Below are positions 1,454-62,584 of a stretch of 64,000 nt of DNA, piece after piece (the first letter of the stretch is position 1; every line of letters starts with the position of its first letter). The notes under the pieces were generated by a model. The model was not told the DNA's origin. It saw only the letters and a program-made list of their open reading frames with translations, and did not search any database. Position numbers and translations under genes: made by a program. Source of the DNA: Perkinsus olseni (lineage: Eukaryota); NCBI GenBank assembly GCA_013115125.1, contig JABANN010000115.1:1-64000 (forward strand), in the 5' to 3' direction.

Positions 1454-3255
1454 ATGTTGTCGCTATCGCTTGCCCTGCTAGCATGCAGCAGCTTCACGTC
1501 GGCTGTGGAAGTCGCCTCTCAGAGCGGACCTCGGCAGCACTTCGCCACCGATGGCCAATGCACAGCAACAGCGGTTGATTGTGCAGCCACGGCCGATGGT
1601 GGCTGCATCGCTGCTAGTACGGCCGATGGCGGGCCGTTGGACTTCAGGGTGGTGTACGTGCCCCCTAAGACTTATGGCCCCGGTCAGAAGCGAGCCGTCT
1701 ACATCAACGAGATCCCTGGTGCCTTCGCCCTCGCTTACCCGAGAATTGTCGACTCCTCGAGAGCTCCTAGTTACGCTCCTGTTGGCGACCAAAAGCCCAG
1801 TGTCGCTACTGGCTACGTTGAGATGCCTGAAGGTACCACCTATGGGTACTGGGATTCTTCCTACGGTATCATGAACGGAGCCGGCGTCTCTATGGGAGAG
1901 AGTACTTGCAGCGCTCGTATGGAGTCTGTCCCTCGTGGTGACGGTCCCGACGGCAAAGGTGCGGTGTTCTGGATCGGCGAGTTGTCTGATATTGGGCTCG
2001 AGCTCTGTGATACCGCAAGGTGTGCCGTTCGGGGCGATCGACGATGGGCGATTATGCTGAGAAATACGGCTACTATGGTTCCGGTGAGGCACTTGTAGTT
2101 GCCGATGGAGAGGAGGTGTGGGTATTCCACGTCACTCCTGACGATACTGCCGAGAGTGCTGTCTGGGCAGCTCAGAGGGTTCCTAAGGGTCATGCTACCA
2201 TCGTCCCGAACACCTTCATCATCCGTGAGATCGATCCTGCAGATGGCGATAACTTCTTGTATTCGACTAATATGTATGACATCGCTCTGAGGTATGGCTG
2301 GTGGGATGGTTCTGGACTACTTGACTTCGCCTATGCTTTCGGTGCCGGCGAACAGGGCCACCCTTACGTCTCTGGCCGACGGATCTGGAGAGGCCTGTCG
2401 CTCTTCGCTCCATCTCTTAACTTGGACCCTACTCTCGGTGTTGAATGGGAGCATCCGACTTATCCGTTCTCGGTGAAACCCGATGAGCCCATCACCATCG
2501 ACTTCATGCGACGCTTGTATCGAGACCACATGGAAGGTACTCCTTATGACTTGACCGACCACGTCGTAGCCGGCGGCCCCTTCAAGACGCCGGTGAGATA
2601 TCCTGGTGGCAGAGCCGAAGAGACCTTCCAACACGGTGCTTGGGAGAGGGCCATCTCTGAGGAGCACTCTTACTACGGCTTCATCGCTGTTACATATAAG
2701 AACAAGTACAACGTGGTTTACTTCGCCCCGTCGTGTCCCCACGGCAGCCTTTTCGTGCCGATAATTGTGAAGCCGAACCAGACCGTTAAGTCCATCCCTT
2801 CTCTTGAATATGCTTGGCAAGGTGCGGTGAACGACAGCTCTCTATGGTGGGCTGCTGAGACTGTTGCTAACGTGATGGACTTGAAGTATATGTATATGAT
2901 TAACGACGTCAGGAAGGCCCAGTTCGAAATTGAGCACAAGATCGATGAAATGATGGCTACCGAATCTCCTGACGATATCGAGAAGAAGATGGCCGACTAC
3001 GACGACAGCATCCAACGTGAATGGATGAATATGCATTACACGTTACTGGGCCAATATCAAAATGGTTACACTAATTGGGGCTACTCAAAGGCTGGCTATG
3101 GGCCGTCTACTGAGTGGTTGCAGGCCGCTGGTTTCCAGGACTTCGAGGCCACACCCGAGCAGTTCGCTGCTTTGAGGAAGAGGTTCGAGGAGACTCAGAA
3201 GCAAGCTGACTCTATCCGTAACGCTGCTCTGGCAAGCGCTAAGGAGGAACTATGA
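1454..3255 (+). pseudogene. Secreted peptidase family C69 (dipeptidase/secernin-like), intronless, one frameshift at about 2033-2040
   Basis: Signal-peptide-like start MLSLSLALLACS; mature N-terminal Cys region (QCTA...DGG); motifs GIMNGAGVSMGESTC, GEALVVADGEEVW, AVWAAQRVP, YVSGRRIW, RDHMEGT, WERAIS. The protein is split between ORFs 1382-2098 and 2020-3255. Could be a true pseudogene or a sequence error. Confidence 0.8.
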
Positions 3256-39010: not shown

Positions 39011-39212
39011 AACAGAGAGTGTATGATCTGTACCATCACGAAACCATTCTCTCGGTGGCGGAAAACTCAGGGGGAAAACTCAACAGGTTGAAGGACACGA
39101 CAACAACTCGACTTGTACAGATGCAGAGCATAACGAACAACTAAGGACAACTGCACAACACATGACTCTCATGTGGACTTCACGTGGAGGGCACCAGCGT
39201 CACCTAAAGGCA

Positions 39213-42200
39213 TCAATTCAGCAGGCACAGGTTCGATCCGCACAGCCTACGTTTTAGTGTATCGAGTATCTTTTCGGCCAGCCTGTCTTCCCCAGTGTGA
39301 ATAACAACCTCATCGTTCTCAGTATCGACGCTCGAGATGCTCTTATCTCCGCGCTTCAACGCTCTCAAGTTGAGCTTTAACTCCTTCAGCTGACCTTTCT
39401 CCGACTCAGAGGGGTTCAGCACCAACTGCTTGTACTGCTTGTGACCTGTATTGTGATCGACCACCTCAACGACCATATCCTTGGCAACGTCTCCAGTGGG
39501 GAGGGCGATGCTCGTCTGAAAGGAAGAAGGCTCAGAGGCGTATCTAAGCTCGACCCTAGGGACCGATAAACGCCACCGGACTCACATTGTTAAGCGGGGC
39601 CGGGTCTCCCCATACATGAGCTGCTTCCTCCACTTCCACCTCGCCCTCGCAGATAAGGGACACTCTGATATTATAGCCATTCTCCGTGGAGGCAGCAGGT
39701 GTTGCTGGGTCGCGGCACTGCTGTCGCACAGTGTAACGAGCTGCCAATCCCCGAGGAGGGAGAGTGAATCCCGTACACTCGTAGGTGACTAATTGCGGAC
39801 CGGTCCTTTGAAGGTAGGTAGTGTCGGGCAGCTCGACCTGATCACCGCCGCAATTCCGCTCATAGAGCGGCAGATCATTGACTTTTTCCGCTGCGAAGAT
39901 CGGATATTCTCGTCCGCCACTCCGTGGACAGAGTCGGAGACTAGCGCTACGTACGAAATTATTATTTCCACGTCCGAGGTCTCCAAACTCCGGGCAGGCG
40001 TTTATCTCAGAGCAAGATGCGATGCAAGATGCCTCAACGCCTACTGTTATAGAGCCCTTATGGATCTCCTTAACTTCAACGATACCAGCGCCCAGAACAG
40101 AGGCCTGGGAGCACCTCTCTTCTTCAGCCTGAAGACACGCCATTCGAATCGACAACCCTCAACTCGTGTAGCCTACGTGCGGTCCGGAATTGATTGCCTT
40201 GGATGGGGCTTTGGGAGTAGGGGCTGGCCATCCCCGATATACCATTTGGGAGTCGTCGTGAGGTTTCACGTCAATTTCGCGGCGCGGTGACGCAGCATCT
40301 TGCCCAGACTCCTCCCAGACTCCTCCCAGACTCTTGCCCTGAGTGTTATACGTGTACCGCGGGCCAGCCGTGATACCCTCCCTCACCTGCGCGACATCAG
40401 GCGGAGACGACGGCCTCGGATGGGACACCGGAGCGTCCCACTCGGCAGCTAGGAAGGCCGCGGCGTTATTCGAAGAGCATTGGATTTTAATATTCGCGTC
40501 ATCGCAGGTGACAGGCAGAGCTCCAGCGTCCGTAGGGTGAGAAGTGGCGGAGTGGCAGCGGAGGGCGGGGCTGCTCGGTTCCGCGAACTGAGGCCATCGG
40601 TGAAAGCCGAGATTATTAGCTTGAAGATCGTCACCTCAATTTCACGCTTGTCGTTGTTGAGCTCTCCGATCTCCTCGGTGCGATCACCGAAGTCAACGGT
40701 GGTGCACTCCGCTGTTATCCTGGCATCCTGAAAGACGTCGGCAAAGCGATGAGCGGGTAAGCACGGGGAGACAGATTTCCTTACCGAGTATGTGTTCCAC
40801 TTCCGGGCCACAGTATTAGCTGCTTCCTTGTTGAAGCATTTGAGGCTGACCCAAGTGTCGAACGCCCCCTCCGAGCCGGGCTTCCGGCAGAGGGCCGAAA
40901 CCTCAGGGTAGCGAGCGTCGGGCTCGTGTCGGGACTCGGCTCCGGCGCACTCGATCTTGTCGAAGGATTGGCCTTCGCCTTGCTCTCGAGGTATCTGAAG
41001 GCACATTAGAGTCGGGAGTGAGTGGTCGAGGAGAATCTCACCATGAAGCCACCATCCGAAATGGAGGAAATCTTGGAGTACGGATGGCCCTCGAATGAGA
41101 CAGCAGGGCAGTGGTCAACGAGTTCATCCTGTCAACATCGCGTTCCAGTTTTGTCAGTAGGAGGGTAGCTCACAAGGGGCATGTGTGGCTGCTTCTCAGC
41201 CGTGTCCTCCTCTCCACCATTTACATCAGCAGGTTCGTCCGACTCCTCCTCAACGGCTCCCTGATAAGCGTCGTCGGCCGGTGCCCCATCGCCGCTGGTG
41301 GATTCAACCTGAGTACGAAGTCTCAGTGGGGAGGACAAAAGAAGCAAAGCCTGATCGCCTCACGTCTCCTTCCTCCGATTCGCCGGCATCGGCATCCACC
41401 TGCGAACATTACAAGTCCGTTACTGTGATGACGTTACGATATGAATGGGTATCCATGCGAGCAGCGGAGGTGCAACCCACCTCAGCCGAAGAGTCCTCGT
41501 CAGTATTAGCCTCATCCGAGGGTTCCTCAGTATCGTCTATATCATCGTCCGAGAGGGCGTCGTGCTCTTCATTTGGAGCTCTGTCGTCGTCTTCGAGGTC
41601 GTCGCCAGCCGCATCATTTTCTTGCCCAGACGTGTCATCCTCTTCCTCACTGCTGATATCATCGGACGTATCATCGATTGCCTCTGCAGCCTGCAGGTCG
41701 TTGGTATCGGCAGTATCGCTGTACGGGGGTGTTTGTGCCTCCTCAGAGATGTCGGGCATCTCTGGGTTCACGGCTTCCTCGGCGACAACTGGCTCGGCAT
41801 CAGCCGTGAGGCCCTCAGAGCCCTCAGAGACTCCATCATAGCTCGTCGTATGTGGTGGTTCTTCGCCGGAGCTTTCGGCCTGCGAGAAGCAGAAGTGAAC
41901 GCGTGCTCTCAAGAGCAGCGTAAGGCACATTTGTCTCGTAAATGCGGCCTGCGAGGATCGAACTCGCGACCTTAGGATTATGAGACCTACGCGCTACCTA
42001 CTGCGCCAAAGCCGCTTGAAAAAGTAGGTCATTGTTTGTCGGACTCAAACCCCACAGTATGCATGACTTACCGAGCCGAGATCGACTACAGGTGTCTCGA
42101 ACTCTTGCTCTGGGATCTGATAAGCATACAACTACTCGAATTCAACAATCCCGATCAGCGACCTCTACCGAGTTCAGCTGAGCATCAGCGGCTTGAAGAC

Positions 42201-42924
42201 ATCGGCCTACCTGATCTCTTTCTACGTGATCGGAGTCGGGCTCATCACCAGCGGAGGCTATCATGGATTCCTCATCGGTCGGCAGGTCATCAGTGAATGA
42301 ATCATCGGTCTCATCACGGGCCATATCGTCGTACGACTCCTCCTGTGCGTCAGTGGATGTAATCTGAACATTCGAAACGGTTTCCCACGCTGGCTGCAGT
42401 CGAGCCAGTCGAGGTGAAGCAGAGAAGAGGGACAAGCTACCGAATGATCAGCAGAAGCTGAAGGGCTCTCGTCGATTGTCGGGAACTCTTCGTCCAATTG
42501 GTCAGGGCCGAGGCTCTCCGACTGACACGATACAAAAAACTCGAGGATGGTATCATCAAGGATACGGCGACATTTCGCTAATGATTTGATGAACGAGAAT
42601 CGGGACGGGGCTTACAGAGAGATCCGCCGCGTCGGAAAAAGTCGGCAAAGTCTCCCCAAAGCTTTGAGGAGCAGCTTCGATATCTTTCAGATCCATTTCC
42701 TCCCCGTCCTCTGCTCCCGCTGAACTCTGCGGTTCGCCGAAGTCAAGGTCCGGGATCTCTGGCATGTCAGGTATATCGGCACTGGCGGGGCCTAGCGAAT
42801 CGCCAGGCCGACTCGCAGCCTGAGGAGAGAGCTACAGGACTGTCGTCCCCGGCGAGCAGTAGCTCACCTGGCTGTTGGCCAAGGCTGCGATAAGAACGAA
42901 TAAGGGCGCGTGAGAGCGGAGCAT
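39213..42924 (-). CDS. Secreted protein: acidic low-complexity N-half plus two divergent Cys/WG-type domains (multi-exon)
   Basis: Signal peptide MLRSHAPLFVLIAALANS; D/E-rich exons at 41100-42800; domains ending CFNKEAANTVARKW and ICEGEVEVEEAAHVWG. Confidence 0.65.
41943..42015 (-). tRNA. tRNA-Met (CAU), probably elongator, inside an intron
   Basis: GCGGCTTTGGCGCAGTAGGTAGCGCGTAGGTCTCATAATCCTAAGGTCGCGAGTTCGATCCTCGCAGGCCGCA folds to a cloverleaf with CAT anticodon, GTTCGA T-loop and a G1:C72 pair. Confidence 0.95.
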
Positions 42925-43219
42925 ACGGTAACACCAAAATAACCACAACTGTATCATTTCAAGTTTCTTGAGGTAACAAGAACTCAATAGAAGGACTACT
43001 GGAGCACCTCGCATAACATCAACATGCAGCTATAGATGGTTAGAGTAAATTGATAGAAAAACCGTAAAAGGAATAAGATCAAAGCGCGCAAGAGGGCACA
43101 CCAAGTACATCGTGTCTCGACGGCCAAGCAGAGCGAAGAATTACCAGGCCTGACCAGTAGGTCCAGTCTTCTCGATAAAATCATCATTCCCGGTAGATCT
43201 CCGTCTGACCACAGAAAAA

Positions 43220-45649
43220 TTAGTAACTCTCACACATTAAGTGTCTTACGTTTCTTATGCGAGAGCTAAGCAGACGAAAGCCTTCCTGCGCCGCGTCATC
43301 AGTGGGGTAATAGATCACCACACTCCTCCCAGTAATGTCCCTGCCGACGATCGAGGCCCCGGCATGCTGAAGCAGCTCTACATGAATGGTATCCGCCAGG
43401 ATCTTCACCTGACAGCGCGAGAGAGCTTGCAACCCCGAGCGTCCCCGCTAGTACTCCCAGTGGAAAGTTCAAGCGGCAGTAGGCATCAGGCGACCCCCGG
43501 CTAACGTCGAGGGAGGAGAGAGTTGCTGTGGCAGCTCACCTCAGTGGATTGACGTCGTTCGTCCATCGAGGGACTTGTGTAGACGAACTTCGGCGCCCCG
43601 TCGATCTGCCCGGGGAGCATTGGCGGAAGGACAGGAGCTAAAAAGCAGCCATATCCCAATACGGTAGATGCTGAGCTCCCTTACCGTGCGGCGAGCCCCC
43701 GGATGACCAGCCGTGGGAGGAGAAGGCGAAGGCCGAGTGCTGCACGTGATGGGCGCCGCCGCTGCGCTCCAACTCTGCGTTGTGGGCAGCCTTCACGGGT
43801 CTTATACCACGCAAAGTTCGACCCGTTGGGATTGGAGTGGTAGGCTCCGAGTTCTGAATGCTTTCCTCTCGAGTTGTGCTTGCATCCTCATCATCATCTT
43901 CCTCGTCAGCGCTGGAAACACCGCCCTCACGGCCTTCGGGCTCATCACTATCATCCGCCTTCTCATCACTCCTCCCGTCCGATCCCTCGCCCCGACCAGA
44001 GCGAGAAGCGTTTGTGTCTCCATCATTTGGCGGCTCTGTGGACACCTGCGGTGGCGGAGTCTCCACAGCTGCATCACCATTCATCGTCTCCTGAAGGCAG
44101 CTTCCTTTAGACACGGATGAGTGTTCAGCTCACCCTAGGAAGATCATCATTAGCGTCTCCTGCCGGGAAGAAGTCGCTCGAAAAATCAGGGATATCAGGG
44201 AGGTCGGGTTGCCACTCGGCTGAGGAAAAACAGATTCATGCAGCAAGTCCATGGCGATACTACCTCCTGAATCAGCGGTACCAACCGGTCGATCTCTTGG
44301 CAAGGGCCAAGTCCCGCCCGCTCGAGCCTTGCTGGCGAACTCGGGTTTCCCTGGGTCCGCCCTTTCATGGCCAGTCGGCAGCGGGTCGAACATCTCTCCA
44401 TCGTCATCGAAGTCCGGAATACTCACCTCGGTGTCACGGTGAGCGAGGTCGGAATCGCTGGTCTCGTAGAGACTCTCAGGTGATGGTGGGCTTCCATCGC
44501 CCAGAGAAGGGCTTTCTTCTGTTCTGTGCTCATCATCCACAGCCTCAGCCTCATCCTCGTCCTCGTCCTCACTCTCCCGTGTCATGTGATCGACACTCTC
44601 CAAGCCTTCATCACTCTCATTCTGATCATCGGTGACATCTCCCAGGAGTTCAGGAGTTCCCTCATCAGCGACCCCGTCTCTCTCCCTAGCAGGGAGCTCC
44701 CCGTCACTCTCCTCTACCGAGGGGAACTCTGCCTCATCAACATCCCCATCCATGCCCTCTGAGGTGTCCGTTTCGTCCTCACCGCTCCCTCCAGCCTCGT
44801 CCTCGTCCACCGCGGCCTCCCCAGGGACCTCCTCAGCATCGACATCATCCTCAGACCCATCACTCCTCTCTGTAGCAAGCTCCGTAGCATCGTTCTCTTT
44901 TTTGAGCTCCTCCGACTCGTCAACATCAACATCATCCTCGTCAGGAGAAAACGTGCCATCTTCGGCATTCTCTTCTTCCGAAGCCCCATCAGCAGCCCGA
45001 GGCTCGCCTTCATCTTCTGACTCAGGCTCCCGTCCTTCAACTTCCTCCTCGTTCGTACCGTCCTCCTCGGTGATAGCCTCGGATCGTTCTGCCTCCGTGT
45101 CTGTGCTCTCGTTTGTACTGCCTGCTTCGACCGTCTCATTATCCTCCGGAAAAGGTGAGGGCGATACGTCCATACTAGGTGCCTACAACCACAGAAAACG
45201 GCCCTCATCAGTCTAAGATGTACTTTGACGGGCGTACCAGGCCAGCTGGAAGGGCCTCAGCATCATCCTCGACTACTGAGCTTTCCCCGAGCATCTCTGT
45301 GGCGGCCTCATCCGTGCTTGCCAGCTCCGCGGCGACGTCCACTGAGTCCACTGAGTCCTTGTCGATAGTTTGCTCAGCTTCATCCTGAGGGTCGGACGGC
45401 TCGAGAACCTAACAGGGAAGACGGCTATGGTAGGTCGAGGTTACCCTCGGGACGGGTACATCAGGATCCCCATCGGACCCCTCCGGGGCTCCCCATGCTG
45501 CTGTAGAGAGCTTCCCATCAATCTGGTTCTGAGAGGAATCACCCGAATGACGTCCCACTGCCCGGTGGCAAAGCCAGCCTTACTGCGAGGTGGGGCTCCC
45601 TCGATGTTGTTAGCGGCAGAGCAACAACCAGGAGAAAATAGATCAACAT
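43220..45649 (-). CDS. Secreted, highly acidic low-complexity protein (multi-exon; 3' end approximate)
   Basis: Signal peptide MLIYFLLVVALPLTTS at 45649; long D/E-rich exons (ORFs 44130-45173 and 43638-44114). Confidence 0.6.
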
Positions 45650-45665
45650 GAGCCCTCCAAACAAA

Positions 45666-48600
45666 CTAAGGCAAACTGGTGAAGAGAGCCTTGGCACTGC
45701 GACCACTGGGAGCGGCGCCGCCGCCGGCGGCAACCTTATTGGTGAACTCAAGAGAATGAAGCAAGGACATCCATGAAGGCTTGACAACATCTAACATCAT
45801 GATAAGTACAAAGACACCAACACAACGAAGAGAGCAGCTCTCTTCACCAGACGGCAGTGTACGGCTCCCCAGGGGGTAGAGGAGGGTCGGGTCACTTCCT
45901 TCTAGTAACCTTGGTAGCCCTCCAGCCTGAACAGCAGCAGCAGTCCCCACGATGGCTGCCTGCCGCAGGGAGGCCGGTCCTACCCCGACGGGATTGCTGG
46001 TCGGCGGTCTGCCGTTGCCCTACTGGACTCCTTGCCTTGGACAGACTCCTTACACCGAGAGCCTGTGCGAATCGAGTGATATCAGTGGTGACCTGAAGGG
46101 AACGCGAAGTCTTATCCGGCAAGGGCGATCGGACCCCACCTCCTGGACGCGGCCCGAGAACTGCCGCATGAGCAGCTCTGCCATGCCGGGCTCCTCGAAA
46201 ATTATGTTCACCTTCTTGCCATCTAGAGTCTCGCCCCAGATGTTCTTCTCGCCGGACCTGCACAGAGGAAAGCTAAGAGTTCAGCAAGGTGGTCTGACCG
46301 AGGATCCCTACCGTAGGCTGTCGTAAAGGATGTGCATCTCATGCCAGTTAGCGCGCTCCTTCGGAGTAGGGTCAACCGCCCCTACGCGGCTCACCACCTC
46401 CGACCCAAGCCGCGTTACCCGGACATTGAGGTGATGCGGTAACACAGCCGAGGGACCTAAGAGCAGCGTTGGTGACCACGAGGGGCGGGCGTAGTTTCTG
46501 ACCTTCAGCTGGAGCATTGGCGAGTGGCAGAACCTAAGACGGGGACCAAGTACAAGCGCGCCGAAGCGTTGAGAGCTCACTGGTTTGGGCGTGTATCCTC
46601 CCCAGATCACAGAGAGCATCTGGGCATCCCGGAAGGTGTTGCAGATGATGTTGCCCTTGATAACATCGGGTGAATCTGGGGAAATGTGGTACGACGAAAC
46701 GCTAGAGATTAGCAGAACTCACTAAAGCCCTCATGGCAGCCAACACGGACCCTCCACTTGCCGTCTCCCCCTCTACTCGATACAGGACTCGAGCTCACCG
46801 CGTCGCAGGTCAAGCGGCGCAGAAGGCTTGCCTGGTCCTGGGCGGCGCGTATCTGTTGACAGTGTTTGTGCCTGGATCAACCTCGTCACAGTCCTACTGT
46901 GAGCATCCTCCCAGCGGTCTTGAGGTCGAGGAGGTCATCGGCGATGCCGGGAGTAGCTTCCCGTTGGAGCTGAGCACAGCTTCCGAACGGCACCTGCATA
47001 CCATCGTACTAACCGAGCGCTCGGGTGGGATGTCCTACCAGAGGCTCGCCGGGTGGAGGGGTCATCACTTGAGGAGCGCTGCCGCTGCTGCTGGAGGACT
47101 GAGACCGAGAGGGCTGAGAGGTGACCACACCTTCTGAGAACTCACCGAAGATCCCCAGCCGAAGTGAGCGAAATTGAACCAGCCTCCGCTGGTGCTGCTC
47201 GACACAGGAGCTGGCGTGGTAGCCGGCGGGGCGGTAGTGGTCGTGGTCGTTGGCGCGGTCGTAGCCTCCTGAAAGCGACAGGATGGTCGAAAAGTGCTGG
47301 CCCCAACGCGGGCCTTACTGATGATGAAGAGGCCCCCCAACTGAAGTGGAAGAGCCCAGCCTGGTGGGTGTACTGCCTGCCTTGGGCCGGGGGTGGGGCG
47401 GATGTGGTGGGCGGCATCGGCGGCATCTTAGCCTACACCAAACACATCACCAAGTGGGCCCTGGCGGCACGATCCTACTGGTCTGTATCCGCCCCAGAGG
47501 ATCGACAGGAACTCTGCGTCCCAGTAGGTACCGCAGACGATACGGTAGGTCACGCCAACGTCCCAACCTGACAGCATTGTGAGCAACACTCGACCGAATC
47601 GGTAACCAGCCTTCCCACCTTGGGCGTCGTGGCACTTGGTCCGGATCTGCCACTTGCCGCTCCCCTCCCACTCAGTCGGCTGCCCCTGTACTCCGTCACA
47701 GGACAATGAAACGGCATCCGGGAAGCCGAAAGGGGTGAGCTGAGCGAGCGATGAAGGAATGCCTCGGAATCTTTCCTGTAGCGTTACCTTCATTATCCGG
47801 CCGGGGTCCATCGCCAAGTCCATGATCTCATCCAACTCAGCAGCCACTGCGAACTCCGGCTGAGCTGCTGTACAGCTGGGGTACCGAGTCTAAGCGAGAG
47901 CACACTTGATCGGTCGCCAGAGGAGATGGAAAGCAGCTCACATGCGGACGAGGAGGCGGAGGAGCGGTGCCCGTCGGCAGTGGCTTCGGCGGCGCCAACT
48001 TTTCGCTGGCTGAAGCCTGGGTTGAGCCAGAAGTCTGAATTTGAGATGCATGTCACGGCTCCGGAGTTACCGCACTTACCATCCACCCGAACTGCGGGAA
48101 CCCGCTCCACCAGCCAGCACTCTGTGTGGGGGCCTGTGTGGTTGTGGTTGTCGTCGTCGTAGTGGTGGTGGTGGTTGAACTGGTCGTAGGTGGTAGTTCC
48201 TGAGGCAAACCCAGTCAGTAGAACGCAGTATGAGTACCAATATCGACCGAGGCCGCCACGCCGACTGGAGCGTGCTGCAACGGGCCCTCTCTCTGTGGGC
48301 GAAGCGACCCACCACTGGAGACTTACCGGCTGATAACCTCCCCAGAGTATTGCAAACATCTCCGCCTCCCAATAGGATCCGCAGATCACGTTGCCGTCAC
48401 CAGAACTCTCGGGATCTGAACCAGACAAGAAATCACCAGGGCGGCCGCCATCATCAGCCCGTCCTCACGGTCATAGTCTTCGCAGTTCACCGGGACATAC
48501 CACTGCCCCTGCCACGCCGTGGGGTTCAGCTTCACTCTGTCGCAGAACAGCGAGTGCGCCCTGCGCAGCCCAGCCGGTAGAACCTGGAGCACGGATGAAG

Positions 48601-51270
48601 GCCGCGATGCGTAGCACCTCCCATACCTTGAGCTCTCGACCTGACGCCAGAGCATCGACCAGAGTATCGTAGGATGGTGCCATCGAGAACATTCCGCCAG
48701 ACTGCATCCTCGTACAGCTGCCGAAACGACCCTGAGAAGCGAGGCGATTCCCCGAGGTTTCCAGTCAAAGCGCCCTCGCCTTGGTCGTAGTAGTCCTCGT
48801 AGTTGTGGTAGTGGTGGGCGTGGTAGTACTAGTCGTAGGTCGAGGAGCCTGTGAAGAGGAAATAATCACGACAAGGGGATGGTGTCAATTTACCACCGCC
48901 TGGGAGTGAGCTCCGAATCCTGAGTAGTAGTAATACCAAGACCGTTGGTGGGCCCTCGCAGCAGTTGTCGATTTTGTGGTCGTTGTAGTGGTAGTGGTGG
49001 TCGAAGTGATCGTTGTCGGCTAACACCATCAAGTGAACTCACCGCCAAGCCTAGGGGACCTACGGGTCTGTATCCGCCCCAGTGTATGGCAAGGAGCTGG
49101 GCATCATAGTAAGCCGCACAGTAGATCCTCCCCTGGCTGACGAAGCCTTGCCCTAACAAAGCACACCTTGAAACCACCAAAAGAACCGCAGAAATGCCAC
49201 TCACCTTCAGAGTCACCGCACTTCACCGGAACAGACCACTGCTCCCCTCCCCCTCCTCCTCCGCCAACAGCATAGTCCTTCCTCGGCAGCTCCATGACTT
49301 GCTCACAGGTGAGGGACAGGATACCCTCCGCGTAGAAGGGCCGCACCTGCGCCGGCGGCTCCCCCACAAGCATGGTCTCTTTGAGCCCACCTGGAGCCGC
49401 CGCCCATAAGGCAGGATATCGAGGACCTCATCCACTTGCCCGCCGTCGGACCAGTCAGGCCGCATGGTCTCGCAAGTAGGGTACCAAGTCTGAAGACGGC
49501 GCTGCGTGAGCCACAAGCGCGGCGCAACTCACTCTGGGCTTCCTAGTAGTAGTCGTGGTAGTGGTGGTCGTTGTAGTGCTAGTGGTAGTAGGGCGGGGCT
49601 GAGAAACAGCAAGTCCTTAGATGACGTGTCATGGGGCTCACCGTGGGAGGGTGGTTCCAAGTGTAACTTCCAGCAGCATGTACCATCCACCAGGCCGACT
49701 GCTGCCTGTGAACCCTCGGGGCCTGGGTTGTGGTGGTTGTAGTGGTAGGAGGAGGCTCTGTGGGTGGGGCGCTCTGAAGCGGCAACAATCTCGTGAGACC
49801 GAACCCATAGAGTAAAATCGCGGACGGAGAAGCGGTGACCGCTAGGCTATTCTCAGTAGCAATTTTTTTCGATAGAAAAGCAGCCGACGACGGTACTAGG
49901 GTCGGTTGTCAACCCCTCCAGGCACCACTCGACAGCCCCGATACGAGCGCGTTAATCCCATCACAAAAAACCTTTGAACTTGTAATGGCCCCTGCTGTCG
50001 TGACGCGTACCAAACTCCACCAAACTCACCGCCTCATAGCCTCCCCACATAACCGCCAGGAGCTGAGCATCCCAATAGGAGCCACAAACTATCCCCTCCT
50101 CCTCAACATGAGCATACACCCTCGAGGATGCAGCCATGTAGCAGCTTGCAGAGACGCGGTAACGGCCATCTCCCTCCTTGGCAGGAGGGGCTCGGACTGG
50201 GTCGCAGGCCATGGTCCGAGCCTGACCTCCCTTCTCTCCCCAGGGCGACACCTGCAGGCACAAGTCCGCCGTCGAGAACTGGGCCGAGAGTTTCACTCAC
50301 GGATAGGCCGCGGTTGTCGAAGAGGAAGTTGGCGATGTGCTGAGGCATGTGGTTCGGGCCGGACAGGGGAATCATCTCCTGGCAGCTTCCAAGGAACGAC
50401 TGACGAGAGCAACGATCGCCGAAGCGCTGCATATCACTTCGCACCCTCTGAGTGGTGGTAGTGGTCGTCGGGGTGGTGGTCGTGGTAGTAGTCGTCGTAG
50501 TGGTCGTGACGACCTGAGGCAGGTATCTTACAGAAGGCTGCGCGGCAAGGGTAACCTACTGTTGTGAACCCTGACCAGGCGAAGTGCTTGAACTGGTACC
50601 ACCACGAGCGCGTCGTCGGGGCCGGCGTTGTGGTAGTGGTTGTTGGCGTGGTCGTTGTAGTCGTGGAGGCCCTTACCTCCTCCTTATGGTACATCACAAC
50701 ATGCTGGAACCATCCCGAGGAGTGCGAGGACCTCGCCCCGCTGGGAACTGGGCCGGCCCCCACCCCGCCCTGAGGGACCGATAGAGGAGGAGAAACCAGT
50801 AACACAGGCTTACTTGGAAGCCGCCCCAGGCCCTCGCCAAGACCTCAGCATCACCGCGATTGCCGCATACCACAACTCCCCCACCCGATCGGCCGTGACC
50901 TAGCAGAATTCCATACCGCAAATCTCCCAAATCTCCTTCAGACCCACCATCATAATCCCGACAGTCCACACGGACCAGCCAGGTAGCTCCCTTGCCCTCC
51001 GGAGGCACCTCTACTGGCTGGCACCTCAACTGCAGTGGATGTATCATCTGTGGTGGGAGGACCTGCTTCAGGAAACTCAGTCCCACACAATACTAAGCCT
51101 CGGTTCTACTGTGAGTTCCCGCTTTCGATCGTCGAAGTCGATGATATCATCTGCCTGTCCCTTCGAAAAGTCCGCTATGAGTTTGTTGCAGGACTGAAGA
51201 AGGACTACAGGTGGGAGCCCACCAACACTCACTAAGAGCAATGAGAGAGCAACTTGCTGCTGTCCCTTAG
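45666..51270 (-). CDS. Large multi-exon protein with six Cys/WGG domains separated by Thr-rich mucin-like linkers (ends approximate)
   Basis: Six repeats ending C(G/A/N)x(Y/F/R)x(D/E)Axx(L/F)xxxWGG(Y/F) at about 46600, 47490, 48335, 49075, 50040 and 50820, with poly-Thr tracts between them. Confidence 0.7.
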
Positions 51271-51339
51271 CGAGTTTCGATCAGCATATTGAAATATACA
51301 ACGACGCCATTTACGGGTGAACCGCCCACGCTCTCCTCT

Positions 51340-54300
51340 CACCTCCGCTGCCGGTAGACCGGCCGACGGCTGCGATTTCGCCCCCTGAGAGACAGAGAGG
51401 GTGAGCTAAATAAGATCGTCTCCATCCTTACGGTGGCGTGGTGGCCCCAGGAGCCTCCAGCGTAGGTGTACCACGACCCGCTGCTGCTGGCTTCCACCCC
51501 ATCCGGTAACCGCATGCCGTTACCAACCATACCAGGGAGTGAATATGGGCCAGGGACCCAAGAGGGATCCTGGACAAAAAGCAGGCTCCGAGGATCGAAC
51601 CCGGGACCTCGCTAGCTCACATCGAAGCCGCCCCACAGCTTGGCGAGTGTCCTAGCCTCGTACTCCGAGTCGCACCGAATCTTCCCCTCCACTGTCTCGA
51701 CGCCACCGATGCCAATGATGTTGCACTTCACCGGAATGAGCCAGTCGTTTAGGTCAGCCCGGTGCTTCGGTCGCGTGACCACCTCCTCGCAAGCTGCTAC
51801 TTCGGGCTCTCCTTTGTACTGGCGTCGAACCTGCCCTGCCAGAGTCAGGCCCACCCGATGAGGAAGACTGACCTTAAACCTCCTCCCCGAGGTATCAAAG
51901 GCGGTGATCTTGCCGTATTTATAGCTGTGGCGCGGGCGAAACTCCCGACAGGTACCAAAGCCAGCCTGAGCACCATCCAATGCTCGACCGCCGCGCCGAA
52001 TGGCAGCAGTCTATTACTTCATCAGTGGGCACGAACGAACCGCCACTCCCCTCAGAAGGAGATGGGCCGAACGCTTCCTCAGACTAACATTCGACCGTTA
52101 GGCATGGTTATCGCACTGCGGCAATTCTTACCTCTGTACTATGCTCTTCTTCTGACGAGTCGAGCAGGCCCTCTTCCTCACCCTCCTCGACCGCAGCGGT
52201 GTCGGCCTCTTGCTCATCACTACTGTGTGCTTCATCATCGAAGGAGGTCTGACCGATGGGAGCCGTGACGAAGGACCCCGACTGCGGCAGGGGCTGCTTA
52301 TGACTTTCCACCCACCTTGTAGCGGTCGACCCTATTATCCTCCGAAAAATGCCTCACCTCGGGCTCCCCGTGACCAGAGCTCTCCTACAGGACCACCATC
52401 GCTGGAAAGGCGATCGCTCGAAAGACTCACCTCATCTCCCGGAGAGAACCCCTCCCCGATTCCCGATGAGAGTCTCGCGAGATGGTGAACCTGAGGTCTT
52501 CCATACTACGGCTACAGAGCCCACGCTACGAATTCCTCGACGAATCATCGTTGGCATATAGCTGCCATGCCGGCCCCAAGAGAACCCTCACGTCCTGGCC
52601 GGTGGTTACCTCATCTGCGTCCTCAAAACTCGGCAGGTCCTCTGGGACACCGTCCTCCTCCTCATCCTCTTGATCGCCGCTATCGCTGTTATAGCCTCGC
52701 AGCGAGGAAGCCTCAGGCTCGGTAGCAGCTACCTCGGGCGCCTGATTGAGAAGAAACATGAGAGCCCCCTCGAGACCTCCGCAGGACGACCAGACGCTCA
52801 TTGCGCCAGCAACTGGCAACAATCACAACGGACCGCAATGACCGGGGAATGGCTGGCGACCCATCGGCAATTGACGAAAAAAGGCGATCGAAGTTGGAGC
52901 CGACATCAAAGCTCCACCAGGCAGGACAACCTCGGCAGCGGCAGCACGAACCAGTCTACCTCGTCGTCGTAACGCGGACTCTCTCCTAAAGAATCTTCCA
53001 GCTCATCTTCGTCACTATCCAGGGCTCGTTCGCCATGGCCATCCTCCTCGGAATTGACCAGCCCGTCAGCGGCAGGGAAGGTCGGTGGCAGCGGCGCCTG
53101 ATGAGCCGTATAGTCGACAACCATGACTGTCGCCTTCCCCAAGGTGGCTCACCTCAGGATACTTCTCCGAAGTGCTTCGCTGAGCCGAAGCCGATGAGGG
53201 CTGGTCGATAGAGTCACCCTCATCACCCTTTGGCGGAGGAGTGTCCTCGAAGCCCTCAACGCTCGGTCCCTGGCAGAACGGGCTATAATTGAGCGCACGT
53301 TTCCTCCAGTGAGCCCGCATGGCAAGTAAGTGGATCGATACGATAACGAGACGCTCCGGGAGGGGTACTCACACTGCGACCTACTGTACCTCTTCCGAAG
53401 AATCCTCAACAGTATTGGACTCATCCTTCGGCTCCTCTGTACCCTCCTCCTCGTCGTCGTCGTCGCCACCTTCAGTTTCCTCCTCATCCCCCTCCGAGTA
53501 GCCCTCAGTCGCACCGCCTTCACGGTTATCCTCAGAAGTCTGGTTCTTCGAGCCCTCCCCAGCGGCATCCTCATCACCAACCGTATCGTCCTCATCGCCG
53601 CTGCTACTCTCATCAGGAGTATCGTCGGTCGCCTTAATGCTCGTTGGTTCACCCTGCCCATCGGCAGCAGGCTTACTCTCTGAGTCCTCGCCAGTCCCTT
53701 CCTCCTTCCCTGCACCACTAACATCATCCTCGCTCCCCTCGGGCGTCACCACATCTTCGCTATCGCCCGACTCGGTGCTCCCCTCGTCTGGGGTATCGTC
53801 GATCGCCTCAACACCCGCTGGCTCATCCTGCTCATTGTCAGCCATGCTAGTCCCTTCTTTCTCCCTCTCACTTTCGCTGCCATTCTCGTTCCCCTCAGGT
53901 GTCACCTCGCCTTTAGACTCGGTACTCCCCTCGTCGAGCAGCCCACCCGACTCCAGGACTTTCGTTTCGGGAGCTTCATCCGCCACCGCCTCGGACCCGG
54001 AAGTGGAAGCTTCACCGCTGCTGCCATCCGCCGAAGGACCCAGAGCGCTGGTAGCACTGCTATCCTCAGTATTACCCGTCTCCGACTCCAGCCTCGGCGG
54101 AGCGATGCTGCCCCCTGCTGAGCTATCATTACTCGCTCGATAGCTCGACTCGAGTGCAGCACCAGTCCTTCCCTTCTTCAAGGCCTTCACGCTTCCCACT
54201 GCGAAAGGCGCTCCCCAACTCTCAGCGAAGTAAACTGCATCGCCCTGCGCATCAAAGTGCAGGACGAACAGAAACTTTTTCTTCGGCTCCTCTGGCCTCG

Positions 54301-54562
54301 CGCACTTAGCGTCTATGAAAGTCCCCCACGGCTTAGAGACAATATCGTCGCAGTAGAAGGTCTCCTGCAGGTCCCAAAGGTTGGCCTTCTGCTCCACGAG
54401 CTTCAACAACCGCACGCCGGCCTTTTCGTCCCGGTAAGCGTGCGTCGCAACGAACTTGTCCCCATCTGAACCGACCCGGACGTACTTCACTGGGCCCGCG
54501 TAGTTTACCTGAGATGATTGGAGGAGATTGCCTTTCCCCGAAAATTGCGCTGTAACGAACAA
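51340..54562 (-). CDS. Protein with N- and C-terminal Cys/WG domains and an acidic linker (ends approximate; may join the adjacent gene)
   Basis: ORF 53381-54562 (FYCDDI...KC...HFDAQGDAVYFAESWG, then E/D/G/S-rich) and ORF 51612-51980 (IRCDSEYEARTLAKLWGG). Confidence 0.65.
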
Positions 54563-54805
54563 AATGCAGCATGCAAAATTGAGGCCACTATGCCATCACT
54601 ATGTATAGTGATGAATTTTGATATACATCAACAATTGCAGAGCGATAGGACACTACATTATCCATACAATATCGACCGCCGTTCTCGCGCCACGTGGCAT
54701 AGTGGTCTCACTTTTGTGGATTGCATTTTTTCGTTACAGACTGTATAGCAGTAGTACAACACAGAATATTGCAACTCCCACAGTACAGGGAAGAGTCGTT
54801 CAACT

Positions 54806-56320
54806 CTACGGTAGTGCGCAAGTCAATTCACCAAGAGTATGAGAAGGGAAACCTTGACCAATAGAAGCCATATAAAACCCACCACACCCTACCACTCCAT
54901 CAGCTTCGACAACTTTCGACCTCGTCCTGTTCAGTACCGCCTCCCAATCCTCGCGGACTTGCTGATCATCCGGTATCTCCTTGGTCAGTTCCACCGGCGT
55001 CTTATGCCGATGAACATTCCCCCAGAGCTCCGCGAACTCCACCGCGTCTTCATGCGTCGGAAAGTGGAAGTACACCGAGCGCTTGTCAGCTGCTTTCCCG
55101 CCAGGCTTGGTACATATCGTGGCAGCAATCGTCGAACCTTCCGGTGGCCTTCGTTGCACCATACTGCAGTAGTAGGGCCGGAGAATCTTCTTCGTAAAGG
55201 AGCTCCTTATCTTCACTCGCATCGCTCGACTGGCTCCCCGCTTGAAGGCAGTGAGAACCTCCCACTTCATCGGGTCATCACCGATGTGAGCGTACAACAC
55301 TTTAGTCGCCAGATTCGGCGGGTCCAACTTAGCTCGTACCTGAGCAAGCGAAGACCGCATAATACAGCTTCTACAAGCTATGCATGGGGAATACAGTACA
55401 GATCCATCTAAAAATCGACGTGGCGATACCACATCTTACCCCACTCGTCAAGCTGAGAAGGGCCATCACGAGGGCCCGCAGGCCAGGTGACGTCAGCATT
55501 CACAGGGCCGACCAAATTAGACAAAACAACTTCGCAAGGACAGACGAGTCAGTGGCCGAGGCCGAGCGGCATCCCACTGCATTCGGCCGAGGCTCCGGCG
55601 CGGGTCGAGAAGAACTCCTGGTGATTGACGAACGCCACAGCAACAGATGGAGACATCACACAAGGGACAGCGCGAACACCGTGCATAACATTAACGCACG
55701 CTACCACTTGAACGTGTAAGAGGCCTGCTCGGTAATGCCACAGAGAGCTTTGTGGACGGGCCGCTATGAGAGGCCGAGCCTGGGTTACACCAGACACTCC
55801 TTAGCGGAAAATCCCCCCTGGGAGTTGCCAGAGTCTTCCAGCGCACCGTCGGCTTTTACCACTCAACGCCGACCTTCGGGCGCGCCGCCGGTAGCGCTGA
55901 AACCTGAGACATAGCGAGACTGAGTAACGGCAATGGCAGCAGTCTGAGACTCACCTCCTCGGAAACATCTCTTTTCGAATAAGGCAGGACCAGCTTAGGA
56001 GGAGCCGAACTTCCCGCCGGTAGAGGCCCTCCCCACTTTCCTTCAAATTTGTGCGCATCCTCTACGGTCTCAAAGTGGAAGGTCAGTGTAACCGCATCCC
56101 GGGCAGCCCATCCCTCCGGTATGCACCGGGCCGTGACCAGCCCGCCCACCTCAAGGCTAACGTCAACACAGGTGTAATCTTCCCTTACGTCCCACAGCCA
56201 AGGACGGTGTCTCACCAGCCGAGCTATCCGCGTGTTTGCTAAGCGGTATGCTCGGGTGAGGATAAAGATATCTTTTGAAGCTCAAATTGTCACGTACTTG
56301 ACGGTTGAACCGAGATTAAT
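54806..56320 (-). CDS. One gene with two Cys/WG domains, or two paralogues; in-frame TGA at 56282-56284
   Basis: YTCVDV...RC...FHFETVEDAHKFEGKWGG and YYCSMV...IC...FHFPTHEDAVEFAELWG align with the domain at 54200-54510. Confidence 0.6.
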
Positions 56321-57408
56321 CTGAAATGGTTTTTGGTGAAACCACAGTCCCGAAAATTGATTCAATACCAGAATTTCCGTAACTCAATGGGAACCGACAA
56401 GTACCACGAAATCTTACAACGCATAGCGAATGCCAGATCCAGAGCAGCGAGTCATGGTGCTCTGCTGCAGTTGGAGGAGTCGCCTCACGCCACTGGTCAG
56501 CATATTACAGAGATGAGAGAGCAAGCCGACGGAGCGATGCGAAACAGACGCATCTCACCTCATCATTGGCCTCAGCAAATTTGACCCTATTTTCCTCGAG
56601 GAGCTCCTCCCAGTTTTTCCGCTTTTGCCTCCCTACCGCGTCGACTGGCACGTCAGTTGCCAACGCCCAAGGAGTGTGGAAATTGCGGTAATCACCCCAG
56701 ACATTTTGCGAAGGTCATCTCCTCCACGTGGTTAATAAAATAGAACAAAATAGAACCCTAGCGTGCTCTTCAACAGCAAGCCTTGGTCGGGCGAACTGCA
56801 TGCTGCTTCAACCACGGTCTCTTCGGGGACCGGGGCTGCCAGGACCTCCTTCAGGGGCCTCCTTCGGACCTCCTTCGTGCTCTTCAGGGGCGCAGGAGAG
56901 AGTGAGCCTCTCAGCCGATGCTGAGGCGTGCCTCGTGCTCCATCTCGTCAACACGACAAAGCGGCTCTGCAGACGCCGGAGGAGCCCAGTCGGGCGAATA
57001 GCGCTTCGCTGCCAAGGTTGGGGGGGCTCCAATGGGAGACGCTCCGGACTGCCAGGCCGAGACGAGGCCGAGGACCTTCCCAGGGCCCCTCCGGACTGAG
57101 CCGCCACCATCAGCCACCACGATGATGTTTAGCATGCCCAAAAGCGAAAGTGGCCCGGCAACAGCGTCGAGAACTACAGGGTGCGTCTCTCAAATTTCAG
57201 GAGCGCTCCCAGAATGAAACTTAACGAGTAGAAGACGACCCTGCGAGCGCTCCTGAAGCTCAGGACAGGCCTATTGAACACCCGGGCATCTTCGCACTGT
57301 GATTGACAGTAACGCAAGGACCTGCGTGTACTCGAACATCGTCTTGAACATGCATGGAGACACATAAAATATTGTAATGGTAGTAAACTTCTAATGCCAT
57401 GCTCGTTT

Positions 57409-58548
57409 CTATTCCTGCGCACTGAAGACGCTGCCGTAGACCGTGAAGCGGTCGCCCACGCCAAAGACGTCGGCGGCCTTCTTTCGTGTCTTGTAGGGCT
57501 CCCGGCTGACCAAGCGTGGTACGATCTCTGCCGCCGCCGCCGCCCGATCGATAGATTGTGGTGATGCCGGAGGCGAGGCTGCAAAGAGCTCCGGATGCGG
57601 CTTCGAGTGGATCCAAATGACGACCATCAGCTGGGCGCCGTTCAAGAACACACCAACGAGGTTGGGGATCAGGTACGGCAAGGAGTGCATGAGGATGCTG
57701 CACTGCGCCCAAAGGCAACAGGATATGAAGCCCGCCACCGTCAATGCTGTAGGGTATCCCTCCAACGACTTCGACCGGACCACCGTGACGATCTGGGGCG
57801 TCGGAGCTGCACAGAGGATGATACTGAGAGTCGTGGCACTGTAAGCGAAAACCTGGACCTTGAGCTTGGTGTCAGAAAGGCTGGTGTTGCAGATGAGAGC
57901 ACCAACAACCACTGCCATCACCGACAGCAGCGTAGCGGCTTTGCTCACAACATGGCCGTCGTAGGAGGCGAAAACGGCGACGTAAAAAGCCGAGATGAAC
58001 ACCGTTAGGAGGTTGATGTGGACGATATCCCAGTGGGCCGTCAGGTAGCCGTACCACACCCACAAGTACGCCTGAGAAAGTCGACAAAAATATCGCAAAA
58101 ACCCGGGGGCATTGCCGACCTGCGTGAACAGGGTCGAGTAGGGCAACGCGGATCCCTTCGCTCGCTTAGCTCGGAGCATCTCTATGAAGTCTGGCAGAGG
58201 AGATAGCACCGATAGCGCTGAAAGCGCCATGGCCATGTACCTGTATATTCGACCAAGCAGCGGAAGCACAGCAGAGCAGCATTCTCACGTCAGAGTTCGT
58301 AGCCAGTCTAGACCGCCCAAGTCGTCATGGTGATGGTAATGATGCTGCTGCTGGGCTCCGAGAGCAGCAAGGTCGGCGGGCTGATGGTGATGATGAGTGG
58401 CAGAAGCCTGACGACACTCACGGACTGCGTTGTGGGTACAGAGGGAGAGGCTTACCGTGTCACCGCTATTGAAGAGGCTCAACAGCAGCTGGCGCCCAGG
58501 GTCGTAGTATCTACTTTCCACTACTGCACAATCTAAGTTTCTTTTCAT
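57409..58548 (-). CDS. SWEET: SWEET/MtN3-saliva family sugar transporter (start approximate)
   Basis: LSPLPDF...SALPY...LWVWYGYL; second repeat APTPQIVTVVRSKSLEGYP...YLIPNLVG; about 7 TM segments. Confidence 0.9.
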
Positions 58549-61600: not shown

Positions 61601-62584
61601 GTTGGAGCGAGGATACGATGGGCCTTTACGGTGATCTTGAAGCGGGGGTTGAGACGAAGGAAATGTCCCCGATGCTATTCCCAGCGGAATCGTCAGCCGC
61701 GCTCGAGCAATCTTGCTCACTTACCATTCCTCAACGCTAGACTCGCCGTTCTGCGCGCGCGTTGTGGTGAGGCTCTGATACAGTGTCTTCGTTAGTGCTG
61801 TAAAGTCGAAGGGGCAGCTCAGCATACGGAGGGTAGAAAGCGCTAGTTGGACCGCTTATATTTTTCCCACTACTCTTGTGGCAGTGTAGGGCGTTCACCT
61901 CCCCCAAAGGCGAGAAAAATGGGATACCTTTCTCGTAGAAAAGATCTACATCGTTGGTGGAAATGTGGTACTCAGCATTGGAAGGGCGGGCAAGGCTGCC
62001 ATTGACAATCCTGCGTGCCTGCTGGTGACCCATGCCAGGTTTCGTTGATGTATCACCACGGATCGGAGGTAGAGGGCAGCCCCTCCAATGGAGGGCCTCC
62101 ATCGCTCTCAGATGACCCTCTCGGTTGTCTCGCTTATGTCGACCCGCGTGGTCGGAATACGCCAATAGTGTCACACTAGCAACAGCGTCTATAAGAGTTC
62201 TAGTGCCGCAGAGTCACCACCCATGTTAGTTTTATTCCTTCTATTATGACATCCTCCTCTTCCCCGCAGGACGATGACGAAGGGAAGTCCTGCATGCCCG
62301 TTCCTGGCTTCTGGAATTCCCTTACCGACTGGCTTGGTGGCATGTGCGTTGAACACCGAGAGGTACAATTTCGTGGCGCGTGACGGGTTCTCGGTGGTCA
62401 GGAGTAATTTTGGCATACTAGACAGTCTTCAAAGCCGTTTCACGACGGAAATAGTAACGTCGTGAGGTTTGGTTATGACGATAAATCTGGTCTCGCTCAA
62501 GACGCGGTGGATGTAGCAAATTTGACTGCCATCATATCCGCCGTTTAATTATGATCTGGGCGAAGTTTGGTAGTGTGCGAGGTG

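Follow-up and report, generated by a model that had tools for sequence, protein, structure and literature searches.

What kind of protein is built when one domain recurs again and again on a single strand of Perkinsus olseni DNA? The window analysed here, the first 64,000 nucleotides of contig JABANN010000115.1 (assembly GCA_013115125.1), carries on its minus strand, between 39.2 and 57.1 kb, 14 copies of one intron-split domain of ~100-110 amino acids (aa). The copies are homologous to one another, their relatives are narrowly distributed, they belong to no named family, and they have a predicted fold resembling that of pleckstrin homology (PH) domains. The best-supported view of the domain is that it constitutes a sequence family of its own within the PH-like superfold, new and restricted to Perkinsus, a view that depends in part on modelled structures. 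As to the cluster, we consider it fairly probable that it encodes Perkinsus-restricted proteins of the secretory pathway that are built from this family.

To measure the recurrence, the helix motif [DEK][AV]xx[LFMIVA]xxxWG was searched in all six frames of the window. It occurred 12 times; 11 of the matches lie on the minus strand at 39,607-56,059, within open reading frames (ORFs) of at least 25 aa, and the twelfth is a stray match inside an 18-aa frame at 61,901. In 100 shuffled sequences, in which single bases were permuted within 2-kb blocks, the motif appeared 0.45 times on average and never more than twice, compared to 11 times in the cluster, and the extended pattern with two cysteines ahead of the motif was observed 8 times against a shuffle mean of 0.02. 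The recurrence of one domain on the minus strand, which an original prediction had drawn from the sequence by eye, is therefore real. A hidden Markov model (HMM) trained on eight uninterrupted copies and run on the window detected, as separate halves, the three copies that introns divide, at 46.6, 48.4 and 49.1 kb (E 2.6e-6 to 0.06), as well as the divergent copy at 40.8 kb (E 1.2e-3), and it gave no match below E 0.7 elsewhere in the window than in the cluster. Another copy, a3, was found at E 3.6e-5 by an HMM built without it. With held-out copies recovered in this way and the two subtypes described below joined by hhalign, the repeats align as had been anticipated.

The window DNA has 50-60% G+C and many short GT..AG introns. 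Alignment of public gene models to the window, combined with a three-frame reading, resolved the 14 copies as exons of three to four genes, in place of the roughly 11 separate proteins first proposed. All 12 positions named at that stage hold a copy, and the count of ~11 rises to a real total of 14, with a2 (40,432-40,736) and dA (~56.55-57.04 kb) as the additional copies.

The copies belong to two subtypes, one with four conserved cysteines (ten copies: a1-a3 and the seven of the mucin-like array) and one with two (cA, cB, dA and dB). Cys2 and Cys3 are present in 14 of 14 domains; Cys1 and Cys4 are jointly present in ten and jointly missing in four. The two-cysteine type had been recognised from the start, whereas the supposed three-cysteine type is dropped, since spliced models show four conserved cysteines, the first of which is encoded by an exon further upstream, some 40 residues ahead of the portion seen earlier. 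The size of ~100 aa is likewise amended, to ~100-110 aa, and introns split the domain. All copies have the tryptophan that ends the helix, and the glycine that follows it is replaced in a1 and a2. A plain HMM cross-search between the four-cysteine and two-cysteine subtypes gave no link at E < 1, and hhalign comparison of the two sub-alignments joined them with a probability of 90.9% (E 1.2e-6); the aligned part begins at Cys2, reaches the WG and spans 58 columns.

In the predicted structure of the last array domain (public model P0011, described below), Cys1 precedes the first strand and Cys4 ends the last one, and Cys2 ends strand beta4 and Cys3 lies in beta5. Cys1-Cys4 and Cys2-Cys3 would each join neighbouring elements of a PH-like sandwich in this model. 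The joint presence or absence of Cys1 and Cys4 matches the prediction of Cys1-Cys4 and Cys2-Cys3 disulfides. An intron after the N-terminal part of the domain, following the second strand, is identically positioned in gene a and the array, which points to duplication of a multi-exon unit.

To determine how widely the domain occurs, 1.84 billion protein representatives were searched (HMMER, E <= 1e-3) with a profile of eight copies. Of the 15 matches, 10 are true relatives (six from P. olseni, one from P. chesapeaki and three from further assemblies), and those that carry a name are all annotated as ‘hypothetical protein’. Domain a2 was among the three stretches that this search matched in one of the relatives, P0003. 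We do not accept the other five matches as relatives. They are long bacterial or metagenomic repeat proteins, one of them a Brucella ‘putative Ig domain-containing protein’; four of them match only profile positions 35-76, the Cys2-Cys3 hairpin, in many weak repeats, and the fifth, P0015, had no matching stretch listed. Word-indexed searches added one relative, P. olseni P0020, among the candidates listed; no P. marinus relative was among those candidates, in searches that are not exhaustive. ESM Atlas look-alikes of the P0011 domain included no usable match.

The domain could not be assigned to a described family, as the original prediction had also concluded. No Pfam family reached its cut-off for 12 ORFs of the window, eight public gene models or eight domain pieces, and Pfam families of the PH clan (PH, WH1/EVH1, Ran_BP1 and PID) gave no match in the same sequences even at E <= 1-10. 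Several lower-scoring Pfam rows were set aside as chance or motif-level similarities, namely DUF5093 for P0005 (E 0.0065, 17 bits compared to a cut-off of 27), NDUS4 for P0001 and P0005, and GTP_CH_N, GGGtGRT and SSP160. No paper on the family or on an extracellular disulfide-bonded PH-like domain was among those listed by full-text searches of the literature, and we know of no described eukaryotic PH-like domain that is both extracellular and disulfide-bonded.

The fold was predicted with two template-free AlphaFold2 models, each from a 14-row alignment of public models and window pieces. In the model of P0011, residues 40-150 have a predicted local distance difference test score (pLDDT) of ~87-97 and form strands at 45-48, 55-62, 67-71, 80-85, 102-110 and 118-124 and a helix spanning 127-137. 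The model of P0002, a P. chesapeaki protein with two two-cysteine domains, has pLDDT mostly of 80-94 and shows six strands and a C-terminal helix in each domain. PH-like structures are antiparallel beta sandwiches of about seven strands with a C-terminal amphipathic helix that closes one end; the predicted models agree with this in their six strands, plus a two-residue bridge, and C-terminal helix.

The models were compared by VIA-align with 48,161 representative chains of the PDB, and the best 50 rows per search were considered. Domain B of P0002 matched the RanBD of RanBP3 at Z 8.6 (root-mean-square deviation (rmsd) 3.0 A over 102 residues) and RanBP2 at 8.4, followed by the Akt PH domain (8.0), the IRS-1 PTB domain (7.7) and the Homer3 EVH1 domain (7.4); 33 of the best 50 row titles name PH, PTB, EVH1/Homer, Ran-binding or FERM domains, and none names another fold. 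P0011 matched the PH domains of Sin1 (Z 6.5) and USP37 (6.2) as well as Yrb2 (6.1), and 34 of its best 50 row titles name PH-superfold domains, again with no competing fold. In Foldseek, the tandem-PH protein Rtt106 came first for P0002 and accounted for six of the seven matches at E <= 1e-3 (E 1.3e-4 to 9.9e-4), with probabilities of 0.92-0.94. For P0011 the highest Foldseek probabilities, all below significance, were 0.90 for the ICAP1 PTB domain and 0.80 for the TgAPH PH domain. The idea that the last strand and helix belong to a PH-like fold, raised originally from the sequence pattern, is in this way borne out by two AlphaFold2 models and three of four structure searches, within the limits of prediction. 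The combination of AlphaFold and Foldseek that had been suggested as a check gave a mixed outcome, with the tandem-PH protein Rtt106 for P0002 and no significant match for P0011.

Hints at the sequence level were also found. The family profile A1, compared with PDB sequences, aligned with the EVH1 domain of Mena/ENAH at a sub-threshold E of 0.05-0.13 in eight distinct sequences, over 70 residues (chain positions 33-102) and in register with the last strand and helix, and it also aligned with the PH domain of TFIIH p62 at E 1.4. The two-cysteine profile A6 did not reproduce the Mena EVH1 alignment; its best PDB match, at E 0.37, was to NDUFS4 and involved nothing but the strand-helix motif, and the NDUFS4 chains were set aside as chance or motif-level.

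Evidence for secretion comes from the first exons of genes a and c, each of which encodes a Met, a charged start and a hydrophobic core of 9-11 residues and ends at a canonical GT donor. By a hydrophobicity heuristic both resemble signal peptides, the maximum Kyte-Doolittle(10) value being 2.67 for gene a, where the exon corresponds to the N-terminus of the public model P0016, and 2.34 for gene c, where it is 87% identical to the N-terminus of P0001. The N-termini of P0002 and P0020 are also hydrophobic. An extracellular location, as originally proposed, would fit these exons and the public models, the poly-Thr linkers of the array and the fact that Cys1 and Cys4 are lost together, and we infer that the proteins are secreted, disulfide-paired and glycosylated and that their modules bind other molecules. 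The suggestion of disulfide-stabilised, extracellular PH-like modules is supported to this extent, as a prediction. The features that make up the cluster are collected in Table 1.

Table 1. Features of the domain cluster in the window (positions are those of the window; Cys, conserved cysteines)
Feature	Position	Strand	Description
Gene a	39172..42924	-	putative signal peptide, acidic stretch of ~350 aa, three 4-Cys domains, C-terminal module lacking Cys
Gene a exon 1	42868..42924	-	signal-peptide-like 19 aa, then GTGAGC donor
Domain a1	40794..41128	-	4 Cys, two exons, helix ending W-N; 97% to P0016 slice
Domain a2	40432..40736	-	4 Cys, two exons, helix ending W-D; absent from the original prediction
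Domain a3	39586..40131	-	4 Cys, two exons
Array	51,959 to ~46,160	-	seven 4-Cys domains; poly-Thr and Trp-rich linkers
Array domain 1	51618..51959	-	4 Cys
Array domain 2	50811..51199	-	4 Cys; N exon 51110-51199, C exon 50811-51062
Array domain 3	50030..50450	-	4 conserved Cys and one extra in N exon
Array domain 4	49064..49489	-	4 Cys; three exons
Array domain 5	48327..48764	-	4 Cys; spliced form present in P0007
Array domain 6	47479..47889	-	4 Cys; short in-frame intron per P0007
Array domain 7	46578..46990	-	4 Cys; domain modelled as P0011
Inter-domain linkers	47155..51476	-	9 poly-Thr runs and 5 Trp-rich mini-motifs (W[WFY]..[FY]....W)
Gene c exon 1	55440..55499	-	signal-peptide-like 20 aa, then GTAAGA donor
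Domain cA	54995..55330	-	2 Cys, single exon; 99% to P0001
Domain cB	54176..54499	-	2 Cys, single exon; 94% to P0001
Gene c acidic tail and small acidic exon chain	52010..54175	-	chain reaches first array domain
Gene d	55859..57135	-	two 2-Cys domains, dA (~56547-57041) and dB (56042-56323); broken in window

The array differs from the other genes in its linkers. In each array domain a donor follows immediately after WGG[YF]xx, and the linkers contain nine poly-Thr runs of 6-18 Thr each on the coding strand; no comparable run was found elsewhere on the minus strand of the window. The runs provide the long Ser/Thr/Pro-rich stretches typical of mucin-like proteins and would be candidate sites of glycosylation. 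Amid them lies a Trp-rich motif, approximately [GS]W[WFY]x[FY]xxxxW, in five copies, each on its own mini-exon and one per inter-domain linker. The copy that precedes the domain in the P0011 model is disordered (pLDDT <50).

Gene c may continue into the array. The public model of gene c, P0001, is labelled ‘partial’, the four residues at its end correspond to the exon that comes next, at ~53,095, and a chain of acidic exons leads from there to the array; on these grounds we lean towards gene c and the array being one gene, perhaps of more than 2,000 codons. Within the chain, at 52010-53400, nearly all the small acidic exons have Glu as their last residue, directly before a strong donor (E|GTGAG, E|GTAAG or E|GTAGA), which looks like repeated duplication of one acidic mini-exon. 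In another assembly a single contig encodes both the protein P0005, which resembles cB and has an acidic tail, and the protein P0006, which resembles the first array domain; their identity to the window is 72-82%. It would appear that another Perkinsus strain or species also has gene c followed by the array.

Gene d is intact in P. olseni P0020, from another assembly, and in P. chesapeaki P0002. In the window its domain dA has at least four frame changes and a gap of about nine codons, a 10-nt tandem duplication is present near 56,750, and domain dB has an in-frame TGA near 56,285 where P0020 has Gly. The copy in the window looks like a pseudogene or dead allele, with an assembly error as the alternative.

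Gene a was delimited by tblastn with the P. olseni model P0016 (832 aa, KAF4660425), whose matches to the gene a exons are 84-100% identical and run from 42924 to 39172; the stretches of full identity confirm that the window comes from P. olseni. Between gene a and the array sits gene b (43223-45408, minus strand), which is very acidic and ends in a strand-helix module without cysteines. Similar Cys-less C-terminal modules end gene a (39249-39515) and the array (46164-46440). Their interpretation as degenerate copies of the domain was not accepted (hhalign probability 1.3%, P 0.039); despite this lack of significance, hhalign places their last strand and helix in register with those of the Cys domain. 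A minus-strand ORF at 45539-45790, located after the 3’ end of the array and before gene b, encodes a transmembrane-like hydrophobic stretch. It could anchor the array at its C-terminus or form the N-terminal part of gene b.

Contigs of run X1, whose origin from RNA is a guess, are 100% identical to genes a, b and c over a small number of segments. They include a 55-nt CT..AC joint at 45,181/45,237 in the region of gene b, which fits a minus-strand intron, and they also span 39,809-40,128, which the public model treats as an intron; no conclusion on expression or splicing is drawn from this run. The window also holds conserved genes that flank the cluster, a peptidase family C69 ORF at 2011-3255 on the plus strand (E 1.5e-26) and a SWEET/MtN3 sugar transporter ORF at 57409-58284 on the minus strand (E 9e-16).

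Taken as a whole, these features suggest the following architecture and function. Each gene would begin with a small signal-peptide exon, followed by long acidic, probably disordered regions, poly-Thr (mucin-type) spacers, or both, and by two to seven (perhaps nine) modules of ~100-110 aa. Each module would consist of six or seven strands forming a beta sandwich, with the C-terminal helix, and the invariant Trp at its end, as the closing element. One disulfide, Cys2-Cys3, would lie at the base of the beta4-beta5 loop in every module, and a second, Cys1-Cys4, would tie the N-terminus to the last strand in 10 of the 14 copies. The array would have expanded by duplication of a unit of two or three exons. 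The products may be extracellular glycoproteins of the wall, matrix or surface coat, in which the PH-like modules would be presented on glycosylated Thr-rich stalks. Most likely the modules have a non-catalytic binding role, by analogy with EVH1, PTB and Ran-binding domains, and their ligand could be a peptide or a glycan of the parasite wall or of the host.

Several observations weigh against this reading. The Foldseek matches of P0002 have template-modelling (TM) scores of 0.12-0.23 and an rmsd of ~16 A, as the alignment spans both domains, and the single-domain model of P0011 had 0 matches at E <= 1e-3. The alignments behind the models have only 14 rows each, mostly paralogues; Z scores of 6.5-8.6 fall in a range that is common for models without a clear match; the fold is, in every part, a predicted one; and the PH-like hints at the sequence level are sub-threshold, unstable and inconclusive. 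These points raise the question of whether the PH-like model is an artefact of shallow alignment and the real fold is another one, or a new small beta-plus-helix fold, as might also be suspected from the match of the strand-helix motif to NDUFS4, which is not PH-like. We regard this as distinctly unlikely, given that two models of different targets, made from different alignments, arrived at the same topology with pLDDT above 85-90, and that two exhaustive VIA-align searches returned no competing fold in their best 50 rows each. The broken gene d bears on another part of the reading, as part of the cluster may be decaying. Extended to much of the cluster, this would mean a decaying pseudogene array that makes little or no protein, and the frameshifts, the 10-nt tandem duplication and the in-frame TGA of gene d, seen against intact relatives, speak for it. 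Yet in the other 12 domains the frames are open, no conserved Cys is missing, the Trp is present and the splice sites are canonical; P. chesapeaki and other P. olseni assemblies have retained orthologues or alleles; and the defects of gene d could be assembly errors or a single dead allele. We consider a largely dead cluster very improbable.

An intracellular location deserves consideration as well, for PH-like domains are typically cytosolic; the proteins would then carry ordinary cytosolic PH-like modules, and the four cysteines would bind a metal. The hydrophobic N-terminal exons of genes a and c and the poly-Thr spacers speak against the cytosol, and the metal site is at odds with the four copies that keep only Cys2 and Cys3, which are insufficient for four ligands, and with the placement of Cys1-Cys4 and Cys2-Cys3 at opposite parts of the modelled strand order. 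We give this possibility almost no credence. The closest rival accepts the same architecture and fold but has the proteins directed at the host, either as adhesins for ligands on clam or oyster haemocytes or tissue or as released effectors. Signal peptides and tandem modules on mucin-like stalks would suit such a role, as would the confinement of the family to a parasite genus. Alleles of P. olseni also differ, P0001 and the window being 88% identical in domain A and 73% in domain B and tail, but these differences were measured across introns and gaps and are hence overstated. No host-binding motif was found, and an acidic and Thr-rich composition equally suits a matrix protein. A host-directed version of these proteins is unlikely in our judgement. 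With regard to function alone, we hold a wall or matrix role as a tentative possibility and a host-directed role as a weaker one; the preferred reading, secretory-pathway proteins of a Perkinsus-restricted PH-like family, encompasses the former.

How do these proteins compare to known systems? The RanBD and EVH1/WH1 domains are the best structural matches of the Perkinsus domain (Z 8.6 for RanBP3, 8.4 for RanBP2 and 7.4 for Homer3), they share with it a last strand followed by an acidic-Ala-x-x-aromatic helix, and Mena EVH1 (E 0.05) is the sole near-threshold sequence match of the family profile. Unlike them, the Perkinsus domain has no significant sequence similarity to, or Pfam match with, these families, its invariant Trp lies at the C-terminal end of the helix, and the proteins have one or two conserved Cys pairs, a putative signal peptide and a mucin-like or acidic context. 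The signal-peptide exons and mucin linkers argue against a Ran-binding nucleocytoplasmic role. PH and PTB domains are cytosolic modules that bind lipids or peptides and have no disulfides. They have in common with the Perkinsus domain a beta sandwich and a C-terminal helix with a conserved Trp, and many such entries match at Z 5-8, whereas some Perkinsus models have six clear strands instead of seven. The tandem-PH histone chaperones (Rtt106, Spt16M and Pob3M) resemble P0002, for which Rtt106 is the top match, in having two successive PH-like domains, but the packing of the domains differs (Rtt106 TM 0.14-0.23, ~16 A rmsd), and the chaperones are nuclear and have no Cys pairs. Comparable in overall composition are the modular mucin-like surface or wall glycoproteins of alveolate parasites, such as the Cryptosporidium mucins and the Toxoplasma cyst-wall protein CST1. 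These likewise have a signal peptide, Thr-rich stretches and repeated Cys modules and are lineage-restricted, but their modules are others, for example the SRS domains of CST1. To our knowledge, no PH-like module has been described within a mucin-like surface or wall glycoprotein.

At its most ambitious, the finding could be the first extracellular, disulfide-stapled PH-like (EVH1/RanBD-like) family, in which an intracellular adaptor fold was recruited to the perkinsid secretory pathway and exon-duplicated on a mucin stalk. Gene c and the array would then encode one protein of perhaps more than 2,000 residues with nine modules, which would bind Pro- or Trp-rich peptides of the host or of its own linkers and so cross-link the wall or attach to host cells. 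In this full form the proposal is unlikely, and we offer it as speculation.

Few adaptor folds are as common inside cells as that of PH-like domains, and a secreted, disulfide-bonded and tandemly amplified version would, if true, widen the known range of the PH superfold. At present the public annotation splits these genes into partial ‘hypothetical proteins’. Clams, oysters and abalone suffer from perkinsosis, which is caused by P. olseni and related species, parasites whose wall and surface proteins have been little studied. The family could mark P. olseni and P. chesapeaki apart from other species, and it would offer a lineage-specific target for studies of the Perkinsus wall or of its interface with the host.

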